Below, in pieces: positions 20,849 to 53,486 of a DNA stretch of 64,000 nt (position 1 is the first letter of the stretch; every line of letters begins with the position of its first letter). A program made the position numbers and the translations under genes. The notes under the pieces were generated by a model. The model did not search any database and was not told the origin of the DNA. It saw only the letters and a program-made list of their open reading frames with translations. Source of the DNA: Escherichia coli (lineage in GTDB: Bacteria; Pseudomonadota; Gammaproteobacteria; Enterobacterales; Enterobacteriaceae); assembly GCF_024502345.1 (NCBI RefSeq), contig NZ_JALDNN010000001.1. One strand, written 5' to 3'.

Positions 20849-20876
20849 TTCTCCCGATTTCCTCAATTGAAATGAA

Positions 20877-20904
20877 CCCGATGATCTGCGCATCGGGTTT
20901 TTTA
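20877..20904 (+). terminator. Rho-independent terminator after cheW
   Basis: cccgatg-atctgcg-catcggg hairpin followed by a T-run. Confidence 0.8.
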
Positions 20905-20934
20905 TTTCAATTTCGCGGCGGGTGGCATCAGCAA

Positions 20935-20961
20935 TAAAGTTTCCCCCCTCCTTGCCGATAA
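20935..20961 (+). promoter_or_regulatory. Sigma-28 (FliA) class 3 promoter of the tar-tap-cheRBYZ operon
   Basis: TAAAGTTT-N11-GCCGATAA, an exact match to the FliA consensus. Confidence 0.9.
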
Positions 20962-34409: not shown

Positions 34410-35165
<756 letters not shown>

Positions 35166-35551
35166 TTTTTACCGTTGCATCATGTCGCCCAATATGATGC
35201 TTGCTCGTACCAGGCCCCTGCAATTTCAACAGGGGCCTTTTTTTATCCCTGAGCAGTATAAAAAACGAACGATTACCGTGATCTGTTGAGCGGGTGACAG
35301 TGAACATAGCGTTGTGCTAAAAATATTTTATATATTCACATTAATTATGGGATTTAAATTACTAAAACTAATAAATATATATTCTAAATAGCAACTGGTT
35401 ATTCCTTAGCAATTAATGATTACATTGTAATAAATCATATTCTTTATCGATTATTTCAGGCAGTGTTGTGCCGAATTATGCAAGCGGTTAATTCGTTGTA
35501 TATTTAATTATACAATGATTTCGGTGTTCTGGAATTTAATTAGAGGAATCT

Positions 35552-39157: not shown

Positions 39158-39262
39158 GCCTGATGCGCTATGCTTATCAGGCCTACATAGTCCCTGCAAT
39201 ATATTGAATTAGCAAGGTTTTGTAGGCCGGATAAGGCGTTCACGCCGCATCCGGCAGTAATA
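39158..39262. repeat. REP/BIME cluster
   Basis: gcctgatgcgctatgcttatcaggcctac and tgtaggccggataaggcgttcacgccgcatccggca units. Confidence 0.8.
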
Positions 39263-49337: not shown

Positions 49338-49338
49338 G

Positions 49339-49468
49339 TCGGATTGGTCGCTCGCACCGCATCCGACATTGGCAGTGTGCCTGATGCGACGCTATTCGCG
49401 TCTTATCAGGCATATACCAGAGATAGCGAACCGTAGGTCGGAAAAGGCGCTCGCGCCGCATCCGACAT
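49339..49468. repeat. REP/BIME cluster (three palindromic units)
   Basis: gtcggattggtcgctcgcaccgcatccgac; gcctgatgcgacgctattcgcgtcttatcaggc; gtaggtcggaaaaggcgctcgcgccgcatccgac. Confidence 0.8.
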
Positions 49469-49480
49469 TTTAGGTTTAAA

Positions 49481-50266
49481 TTAACTGGCCTGTTTTTTCA
49501 TCATACTGATAATAAACAATAGTGCAGCACATAGTACTACCGACGGACCCGCCGGCGTATCGTAAAATGCGGAAAAGGTTAAACCGCCAGTCACTGCCAC
49601 CATCCCCACCAAAACAGCGACACCAGCCATCTGTTCCGGCGTGCGGGCAAAGCGACGCGCAGTAGCTGCAGGAATAATCAGCAACGAAGTAATAATCAAC
49701 GCACCGACAAATTTCATCGCTACACCAATCGTCAATGCCGTCACCAGCATCAACAACAATTTCACGCGCTGTAATTTCACACCATCAACAAACGCCAGAT
49801 CCGGGCTAATCGTCATCGACAGCAAATTGCGCCATTGCCAGAACAAAATAGCCACCACGATGACCACGCCAATTGCAATAGAGATGAGATCTTCTGGCGT
49901 CACTGCCAGTAAATCACCGAACAGGTAAGCCATCAAATCAACACGAATGTTAGACATCAGACTAACGACCACCAGGCCCAGCGACAGGGCACTGTGCGCC
50001 ATAATCCCTAATAACGTGTCGATCGCCAGCTGTGGACGCTTCTCCAGCCATACCAGACCGCCCGCCAGCAGCAGCGTAACGGCAATTACCGCATAGAATG
50101 GATTCACGTCCAGCAACAAACCAAACGCGACACCAAGTAATGAGGCATGAGCCAGCGTATCACCGAAATAAGACATACGACGCCAGACTACAAACGAACC
50201 CAGCGGACCCGCGGCACAGGCGAGCATGATCCCGGCTAACCAACCGGGAAATAATAATTCAATCAT
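49481..50266 (-). CDS. znuB: Zinc ABC transporter permease ZnuB
   Basis: 261 aa. Confidence 0.95.
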
Positions 50267-51018
50267 GAGCGATCATTTCCCCGACGCAAAACAATTCGTC
50301 CCTGTAAATCGTGACGATGATTATGATGATGGCGATAGATACCCAGTTGTTCAGCACCACGAGGACCAAACATTGAAATAAACTCCGGATGCAGGGAAAC
50401 AACTTCCGGTGTGCCGGAACAACAAATGTGGTGATTCAGGCACAGCACTTCATCGGTTTTTGCCATCACCAGATGCAGATCGTGAGAAACCATTAAAACG
50501 CCACAATCCAGTTCACGACGCAGTTGGTCAATAAGGTCATATAACGCCACCTGACCATTTACATCCACGCCTTGAGTGGGTTCATCCAGCACTAATAATT
50601 GCGGGCGATTTAACAATGCTCGCGCTAACAGTACACGCTGCGTTTCGCCACCAGAGAGCTTTTGCATCGGTGCGTTAATCAGGTGCCCGGCCTGGACACG
50701 TTTCAGTGCAGGCAAAATATCTTCTTTATGTGTACCAGGGCGTAAGCGTAAAAAACGGTTTACGGTCAGTGGCAACGTGGTGTCGAGATACAGCTTCTGC
50801 GGTACATAGCCGATGCGCAGTTTTCCGTTGCGCTTGATAACCCCTTCATCGGGTGTTACCAGCCCGAGCACTACCCGTACCAGTGTCGACTTACCTGCGC
50901 CATTTGGCCCAAGTAAAGTCAAAATTTTTCCAGGTTTAAGTTCCAGCGACACATCAGAGAGGACGCGGCGTTGGCCAAAAGAAACCGAGACATTTTCCAG
51001 GGAAACCAGACTTGTCAT
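50263..51018 (-). CDS. znuC: Zinc ABC transporter ATPase ZnuC
   Basis: 251 aa; Walker [10 protein letters not shown]; 4-nt overlap with znuB. Confidence 0.95.
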
Positions 51019-51042
51019 GTTAATTTTAGTCTTGCAGTAGTC

Positions 51043-51065
51043 ATGAAATGTTATAATATCACACT
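51043..51065. promoter_or_regulatory. Zur box in the divergent znuA / znuCB promoter region
   Basis: tgaaatgttataatatcacactt, near-palindromic around GAAATGTTATAATATCACA. Confidence 0.8.
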
Positions 51066-51096
51066 TCTCATATTCATTACGATGATTGGTCGCATT

Positions 51097-52029
51097 ATGT
51101 TACATAAAAAAACGCTTCTTTTCGCAGCATTATCCGCCGCTCTCTGGGGAGGTGCAACACAGGCCGCAGATGCCGCCGTTGTCGCTTCGCTTAAACCCGT
51201 TGGGTTCATCGCTTCTGCCATTGCTGATGGGGTAACAGAAACGGAGGTTTTACTTCCTGACGGCGCTTCAGAACATGATTATTCACTGCGTCCATCGGAT
51301 GTAAAACGCTTACAGAACGCGGACTTAGTCGTTTGGGTTGGCCCGGAGATGGAAGCGTTTATGCAAAAACCGGTAAGCAAATTACCAGAAGCGAAGCAGG
51401 TAACGATTGCGCAGCTTGAAGATGTGAAACCGCTACTGATGAAAAGTATTCACGGCGATGATGATGATCACGACCACGCGGAAAAAAGTGACGAAGATCA
51501 CCATCACGGCGATTTCAACATGCATCTTTGGCTTTCCCCAGAGATAGCGCGGGCTACAGCGGTTGCAATCCATGGAAAATTAGTGGAACTTATGCCGCAA
51601 AGTCGAGCCAAACTTGACGCCAACCTGAAGGATTTTGAGGCACAATTAGCCTCAACCGAAACGCAGGTTGGTAACGAGCTCGCGCCGCTCAAGGGGAAAG
51701 GTTATTTCGTTTTTCACGATGCTTACGGCTATTTCGAAAAACAGTTCGGACTGACACCGCTTGGTCATTTTACCGTTAACCCTGAGATTCAACCTGGCGC
51801 GCAGCGTTTACATGAAATAAGAACACAGTTGGTTGAGCAAAAAGCAACCTGCGTTTTTGCTGAGCCACAGTTCAGGCCAGCGGTCGTTGAGAGCGTCGCA
51901 CGAGGGACATCCGTTCGTATGGGAACGTTGGATCCCCTGGGGACGAATATCAAACTGGGTAAAACAAGCTATTCAGAATTCCTGAGTCAATTAGCCAACC
52001 AGTATGCGAGCTGCCTGAAAGGAGATTAA
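51097..52029 (+). CDS. znuA: Zinc ABC transporter periplasmic binding protein ZnuA
   Basis: Internal start [12 protein letters not shown] gives 310 aa; His-rich loop [19 protein letters not shown]; the track ORF is extended to 352 aa. Confidence 0.95.
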
Positions 52030-52044
52030 TGAGGAAGTGATTAC

Positions 52045-53367
52045 GTGCAACAGATAGCCCGCTCTGTCGCCCTGGCGTTTAATAATTTACCGCGACCACA
52101 CCGCGTTATGTTGGGGTCGCTCACCGTTCTTACTCTGGCCGTCGCTGTCTGGCGGCCCTATGTTTATCACCGCGATGCCACGCCAATTGTCAAAACCATT
52201 GAGCTGGAACAGAACGAAATTCGTTCGCTCTTGCCTGAAGCCAGTGAGCCGATTGATCAAGCTGCACAAGAAGATGAAGCCATTCCCCAGGACGAACTGG
52301 ATGACAAAATCGCCGGTGAAGCGGGCGTGCATGAATATGTTGTTTCCACTGGCGATACGCTAAGCAGCATTCTCAATCAGTATGGTATTGATATGGGTGA
52401 TATCACCCAACTGGCTGCGGCCGACAAAGAATTGCGTAACCTGAAAATCGGTCAACAACTCTCCTGGACATTAACCGCGGACGGCGAACTGCAGCGCCTC
52501 ACCTGGGAAGTGTCTCGTCGTGAAACCCGAACCTATGACCGTACTGCCGCTAACGGTTTTAAAATGACCAGCGAAATGCAGCAAGGAGAGTGGGTTAACA
52601 ATCTGCTGAAAGGTACCGTCGGGGGGAGCTTTGTTGCCAGCGCCAGAAACGCCGGTTTAACCAGCGCCGAAGTGAGCGCAGTGATTAAAGCCATGCAGTG
52701 GCAAATGGATTTCCGCAAACTGAAAAAAGGCGATGAATTTGCGGTATTAATGTCTCGAGAAATGCTTGATGGTAAACGTGAGCAAAGCCAGCTGCTGGGC
52801 GTACGTTTGCGTTCAGAAGGTAAAGATTATTACGCTATCCGCGCTGAAGATGGCAAATTCTACGATCGTAACGGTACTGGTCTGGCGAAAGGATTCTTGC
52901 GATTCCCGACGGCGAAACAGTTCCGTATCTCGTCTAACTTTAACCCGCGTCGTACTAATCCGGTGACCGGTCGCGTTGCACCACACAGAGGTGTTGATTT
53001 CGCCATGCCGCAGGGTACGCCAGTGCTTTCAGTGGGTGACGGTGAAGTGGTGGTTGCCAAACGCAGTGGCGCAGCAGGTTATTATGTGGCTATTCGTCAT
53101 GGTCGCAGCTACACCACGCGTTATATGCACTTGCGCAAGATTCTGGTGAAACCGGGACAGAAGGTGAAACGTGGCGACCGTATCGCGCTTTCCGGTAATA
53201 CCGGACGTTCAACCGGGCCGCATCTGCACTATGAAGTATGGATAAACCAGCAGGCCGTAAACCCGCTGACGGCAAAACTGCCGCGTACCGAAGGGCTGAC
53301 CGGCTCCGATCGTCGCGAATTCCTGGCGCAGGCCAAAGAGATTGTGCCGCAGCTACGGTTTGATTAA
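52045..53367 (+). CDS. mepM: Murein DD-endopeptidase MepM (YebA); LysM plus M23 peptidase
   Basis: 440 aa; GTG start. Confidence 0.93.
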
Positions 53368-53486
53368 TTAACATCCATTCGCAGCCGGTACGCAGTCAGT
53401 ACCGGCTTTTTTTATTTGGTGCGGGGCAAGTTGCGCCGCTACACTATCACCAGATTGATTTTTGCCTTATCCGAAACTGGAAAAGC

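Follow-up and report, generated by a model that had tools for sequence, protein, structure and literature searches.

The studies credited with the Zur operator of PznuABC in Escherichia coli K-12 are reportedly those of Patzer and Hantke in 2000 and of Outten in 2001. The znu operator is a model for zinc-responsive repression, and the first structure of a Fur-family protein with DNA was solved on it. According to the literature, the region with the bidirectional promoter for znuA and znuCB contains a single element bound by Zur. Two Zur dimers occupy opposite faces of this DNA with high cooperativity (apparent Kd of 8.2 x 10^-18 M^2 by EMSA), and each monomer touches the purine in an RNNNY element, with most weight on the central bases (Gilston et al., 2014; PMC4219657). 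The crystal structure from that work is cited as PDB 4MTD, and an extended −10 RNA polymerase site lies inside the crystallised duplex (PMC4219657, Figure 1B legend). The affinity of Zur for the znu operator ranks among the lowest, yet this site has the top position-weight-matrix score (Gilston et al., 2014; PMC4219657). In E. coli, Yersinia pestis, and Erwinia, expression of the znu genes has been reported to depend on zinc and on zur.

In Y. pestis, znuA and znuCB are also divergent, with a gap of 73 bp and a Zur box lying over both −10 elements (Li et al., 2009; PMC2706843). Repression by Zur was demonstrated there with lacZ fusions, EMSA, and footprinting, and repression through occlusion was read from start-site mapping as well (PMC2706843). 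Zur left two footprints, of which site 1 includes the box and site 2 lacks it, whereas a single region is described in E. coli. In Erwinia, qRT-PCR in a zur mutant showed that Zur represses znuA-eagA and znuCB, and c-di-GMP also affects the cluster. The other Zur boxes of E. coli, at zinT, ykgM-ykgO (encoding L31p/L36p), and pliG, share the RNNNYRNNRYNNYRNNNY skeleton and dimer-of-dimers binding with the znu site but, unlike it, control one direction only. Another close comparison is the general class of bidirectional promoters, in which divergent starts 7–25 bp apart, most commonly 18 bp, are served by −10 hexamers overlapping on opposite strands (Warman et al., bioRxiv 10.1101/2020.01.31.928960; PMC12825309). 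The word "znu" is absent from the main text of both of these reports.

The DNA studied here, referred to as the window, is a stretch of 64,000 nucleotides from the chromosome of another E. coli strain. A 701-nt stretch around the Zur site is 100% identical to many E. coli chromosomes; of 5426 complete E. coli genomes, 5425 contain it, and their annotation names the genes znuC and znuA. Separately, among the 5427 E. coli matches to the junction of znuC and znuA, one is carried by a plasmid and not by a chromosome. The znuC gene (50263-51018, minus strand, start at 51018) encodes the ATPase of a zinc ABC transporter, and znuA (51097-52029, plus strand, start at 51097) its periplasmic zinc-binding protein, both by RefSeq annotation and by NCBIfam equivalog matches of 536 and 525 bits, respectively. 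Behind znuC lies znuB (49481-50266), which overlaps znuC and is co-transcribed with it. Downstream of znuA, the murein DD-endopeptidase gene mepM (52045-53367, plus strand) begins 15 nt past the znuA stop and is followed by lpxM. All five genes have NCBIfam equivalog matches far over the cut-offs. The zur gene itself lies outside this window, and the window contains no tRNA genes; Rfam matches over the gathering score are the MicL sRNA (34937-35244, plus), the C0465 RNA (20868-20945, minus), and the ES036 (CssrF) sRNA (39179-39221, minus).

The gap between znuC and znuA is 78 nt (51019-51096) and 69% A+T, which bears out the first-pass annotation of a divergent pair separated by about 80 nt. 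Both the flanking genes and the 78-nt spacing are the same as in E. coli K-12, to which this strain is about 98.6% identical over 6 kb around znu. The only intergenic difference is a single base at 51084, outside the operator (G here, T in K-12). This base completes an in-frame ATG at 51082-51084, 15 nt 5′ of the annotated znuA start, which would shrink the gap to 63 nt. The triplet reads ATT in K-12 and the ATG is absent in many genera; it was therefore rejected as a start codon and is taken to be a strain polymorphism. At the other end of the operon, the convergent gap between ruvB and znuB (49338-49480) resembles a REP-type repeat by eye and varies in length by strain, measuring 143 nt in this one, against 146 nt for K-12 and 243 nt for ABWA45. 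At this gap, the megablast alignment of the window with strain ABWA45 breaks and overlaps. The two are otherwise collinear over 2590-63998 at 98.4–99.4% identity, bar two insertions, one of IS30 between flhD and uspC and one of ISKpn26 within tar, that are present in ABWA45 and absent here (at about 14950 and 21415).

The evidence that carries the assignment is identity with DNA on which Zur binding has been characterised. The crystallisation oligonucleotide TAGTCATGAAATGTTATAATATCACACTTCTCA (Gilston et al., 2014; PMC4219657, Table S2), the 33-nt 31mer2bpOH-r comprising a 31-bp duplex and an overhang, was co-crystallised with Zn-Zur as (Zur2)2; it has one match in the window, at 51038-51070, with no mismatch. 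The EMSA probe of the same study is likewise identical to 51030-51075 of the window. Over both intervals, the sequence is that of the E. coli K-12 PznuABC operator, and there is no difference inside the operator. Within the species, the 31-mer at 51039-51069 is identical in at least 5169 of the 5426 complete genomes. The site is the already known E. coli Zur operator, found in another E. coli strain, and that it serves the bidirectional promoter of znuA(-mepM) and znuCB can be held with near certainty.

Motif analysis places the Zur box more exactly. The intergenic sequence around the site reads tcttgcagtagtcatGAAATGTTATAATATCACActtctcatattcattacgatgattggtcgcattATG, and the 19-mer gaaatgttataatatcaca quoted in the first-pass annotation is found at 51045-51063. 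Scanning was carried out with the 23-bp consensus GAAATGTTATAWTATAACATTTC of proteobacterial and gamma-proteobacterial Zur boxes, also written as the half-sites GAAATGTTATA-N-TATAACATTTC. Its sole match in the window at three or fewer mismatches is GAAATGTTATAATATCACACTTC at 51045-51067, with two mismatches (51060 and 51064), and 100 shuffles gave no match. In addition, the 20-mer at 51044-51063 is an exact match to TGWNAYRWTATAWYRTNWCA, the structure-based pattern derived from Gilston et al. (2014), for which about 5 x 10^-4 chance matches per window are expected at uniform base frequencies. The znu site accordingly has both sequence features of the Zur-box class, the consensus 23-mer and the TGWNAYRWTATAWYRTNWCA pattern. 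The interval first proposed for the box, 51043-51065, covers the quoted 19-mer but is shifted leftward by 2 nt relative to the 23-bp box and overruns the 20-mer by 1–2 nt at each end. Its description as near-palindromic holds, since 9 of 11 arm positions pair around A51056, including 6 of 7 in the 7-1-7 core TGTTATA-A-TATCACA. Palindromy was rejected as evidence, the window having 11 comparable 11-1-11 palindromes against 7.1 ± 2.0 in shuffles; the RNNNYRNNRYNNYRNNNY skeleton, with 235 occurrences, was likewise set aside as uninformative alone. The match to the Zur motif, unlike palindromy alone, exceeds chance. The exact site string did not occur in a full-text literature search, and consensus and pattern scans placed none of the zinT, ykgM-ykgO, and pliG boxes in the window.

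Zur and Fur are paralogues, and the boxes of the Fur family are AT-rich inverted repeats, 7-1-7 or 9-1-9, of comparable size, so a Fur box, or a site for a different member of that family under iron instead of zinc control, has to be weighed at this point. The 19-bp Fur consensus GATAATGATAATCATTATC, however, is without a match at three or fewer mismatches anywhere in the window. The central TATA touched by Tyr45 of Zur is reported to occur specifically in Zur boxes and to be lacking from the Fur consensus (PMC4219657), and the neighbouring genes encode a zinc importer. Control by Fur or another such relative can hardly be credited.

The Zur box overlaps the core promoters of zinc-acquisition genes, znuA and znuCB, as is typical of the Zur-box class. 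Because the intergenic region is identical in K-12 and in the window except at 51084, start sites mapped in K-12 by SMRT-Cappable-seq (PMC6131387, Supplementary Data 1 and 2) can be transferred. The znuA start falls at 51066 on the plus strand (K-12 1942614), with a minor start at 51068 (K-12 1942612), and the znuCB start at 51047 on the minus strand (K-12 1942633). The two are served by a shared symmetric −10 region (51052-51058), with TATAAT at 51052-51057 on the plus strand for znuA and TATTAT from 51058 down to 51053 on the minus strand for znuCB. Each hexamer is part of an extended −10 element, TGtTATAAT at 51049-51057 on the plus strand (TG at 51049-51050) and TGaTATTAT from 51061 down to 51053 on the minus strand (TG at 51061-51060). 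The starts at 51066 and 51047 are 19 nt apart, against the canonical 18 nt, and fall on T residues at the edges of the 23-bp box, with the −10 hexamers within it. The hexamers overlap by 5 nt, and position 2 of each pairs with position 6 of the other. The symmetric −10, the 5-nt overlap, and the 2/6 pairing are shared with the bidirectional promoters of Warman et al., and the spacing falls within the 7–25 bp of that class. The znu region differs from the class in that a symmetric repressor site is laid over the shared −10, switching both directions together.

Upstream of each start, a candidate −35 element can be placed, TTGCAG at 51032-51037 on the plus strand for znuA (−34 to −29 from the mapped start) and TCGTAA at 51077-51082 on the minus strand for znuCB (−35 to −30), of which TCG (plus-strand 51080-51082) is 99–100% conserved. 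A simple sigma-70 scan of 50850-51250 found no promoter, an outcome that reflects a −35 requirement too strict for weak −35 elements with an extended −10 and is not evidence of absence. The Cappable-seq supplementary files of PMC4782308 contain no entry for the znu locus. A SoxS/marbox reading of TTGCA, which agrees by eye with about 10 of 14 consensus positions and would be badly placed for both promoters, was dropped in favour of the −35 assignment. SoxS has been reported to raise znuACB expression, and a direct interaction was judged unlikely in a 2026 paper. A 2024 study described partial ZntR recognition sequences overlapping Zur boxes and found that ZntR speeds the unbinding of Zur from the 31-bp znu DNA.

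The reach of these elements across the family was followed in znuA loci from 80 Enterobacteriaceae species, drawn from genera including Escherichia, Salmonella, Citrobacter, Enterobacter, Klebsiella, Kluyvera, Cedecea, and Buttiauxella. Alignment of the 140 nt upstream of znuA gave 75 distinct sequences, with no indels between 51025 and 51097. A phylogenetic footprint of 16 nt, ATGTTATAATATCACA at 51048-51063, is invariant in all 75 bar one A-to-T change at 51056, the position that is W in the Zur consensus. Just outside the footprint, identity drops to 39–60% (51044-51045, 51064, 51066, and 51068-51071), so that the site is conserved at orthologous loci amid diverging intergenic DNA, as is characteristic of Zur boxes. 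Two further conserved islands flank the box, TTGCA at 51032-51036 (95–100%) and ACGA at 51079-51082 (89–100%). Their conservation and their distance from the start sites indicate that these islands are probably weak −35 elements. The boxless second footprint of Y. pestis might be the counterpart of one of these islands.

A symmetric bidirectional −10 promoter could, in principle, account for such a footprint without any repressor site, through RNA polymerase recognition on both strands. The invariant block at 51049-51063 consists of plus-strand TGtTATAAT and minus-strand TGTGATATTAT, the 19-nt separation of the divergent starts fits the general class of bidirectional promoters, and the palindromy of the site is at chance level. 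Since this block is exactly the union of both extended −10 elements and coincides at the same time with the 7-1-7 Zur-box core, operator and promoter cannot be told apart by conservation alone. It is the crystal structure and the EMSA data that distinguish them, as the site matches the structure-based Zur box exactly and is identical in sequence to the DNA crystallised and gel-shifted with Zur. The outer arms, GAAxGT (51045-51050) and ACAYTYC (51061-51067), also keep their Zur-box character in other genera, beyond what the −10 elements need. A promoter and an operator are compatible in the same sequence, and the promoter fails just as the sole explanation, in which role it is highly improbable. 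No evidence was encountered that contradicts a Zur operator. The initial proposal of a Zur box in which a single operator represses both transcripts is supported by the identity with crystallised DNA, by the literature, and by the K-12 start sites.

For the Zur operator, the following course of repression can be proposed, in which the motif match, the identity with the crystallised operator, the phylogenetic footprint, and the start-site mapping come from the present analysis, while Zur binding, its stoichiometry, and its zinc dependence are taken from the literature. When zinc is sufficient, two Zn-loaded Zur dimers would occupy the pseudo-palindrome at 51044-51063 cooperatively, on opposite faces, and the (Zur2)2 footprint would extend over some 31 bp, about 51039-51069. 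The symmetric −10 shared by the divergent promoters (51049-51061) and their starts at 51066 and 51047 all lie inside the operator. With both −10 elements and both starts within the roughly 31 bp covered by (Zur2)2, bound Zur would exclude RNA polymerase from both promoters, and we infer that repression in E. coli works by occluding the promoters. Under zinc scarcity, Zur would lose its regulatory zinc and leave the box, and both transcription units would be expressed together.

Several features of the locus may add to this arrangement. C51060 departs from the A of the Zur consensus and breaks the palindrome, yet is invariant in 75 of 75 sequences; this asymmetry may be under selection, through either the extended −10 of the minus strand or a tuned affinity. 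Two extra znuCB starts have also been mapped on the minus strand. One, at 51091 (K-12 1942589), lies just before the znuA start codon, with a candidate −10 of TAACAT from 51102 down to 51097, and the other, at 51123 (K-12 1942557), lies inside the znuA coding region, with a candidate −10 of GATAAT from 51134 down to 51129. The Zur box is located about 28–79 nt downstream of these starts, where Zur would have to act as a roadblock and not by promoter occlusion.

On the znuA side, the transcription unit extends in part into mepM. No terminator is predicted in the 15-nt gap between znuA and mepM, and a strong terminator follows mepM at 53383-53407. The SMRT-Cappable-seq operon list (PMC6131387) contains znuA|mepM operon variants (b1857|b1856) from the Zur-controlled start. 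Among 41 reads beginning at the znuA start, 16 stop at a "novel TTS" (K-12 1941517, window 52163) and 10 read through. Just before this 3′ end, inside codons ~31–40 of mepM, lies the plus-strand hairpin GGCCGTCGC-TGTCT-GGCGGCC (52137-52157), the stem of which is kept in 69 distinct Enterobacteriaceae sequences, with covariation confounded by the coding constraint. In addition, internal starts for mepM or mepM-lpxM are found on the plus strand inside znuA at 51599 (K-12 1942081) and 51654 (K-12 1942026), so that mepM does not rely on the Zur-controlled promoter alone. The literature reports that mepM is induced in a zinc-dependent way in E. coli, and it reports co-transcription in Erwinia. That mepM can be reached from the Zur-controlled promoter and from internal promoters answers a question left by Murphy et al. 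(2019).

Taken as a whole, a locus more layered than one operator with two promoters, in which a roadblock, a tuned affinity, and a partial terminator in mepM all take part, is a tentative and rather unlikely reading. If it were true, C51060 would be selected to keep the operator weak, and znu would be de-repressed first as zinc falls; the mepM hairpin, as a partial intragenic terminator, would set the ratio of znuA to mepM. No discussion of the roadblock, the tuned affinity, or the partial terminator was found in the literature searched, the studies of Patzer and Hantke (2000) and Warner and Levy (2012) falling outside the search. The invariant, non-consensus C51060, the znuCB starts upstream of the box, and the 3′ end within mepM are small refinements and not discoveries.

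The znu site illustrates that a real regulatory site can be recognised from sequence alone, here without adding new biology. ZnuABC is relevant to zinc acquisition and virulence in enteric pathogens, and the additions made for its operator are modest, namely a family-wide footprint, the placement of published starts on a shared symmetric −10, the upstream starts, and the 3′ end inside mepM. Finer dissection of the balance between znuA, mepM, and znuCB could start from these.
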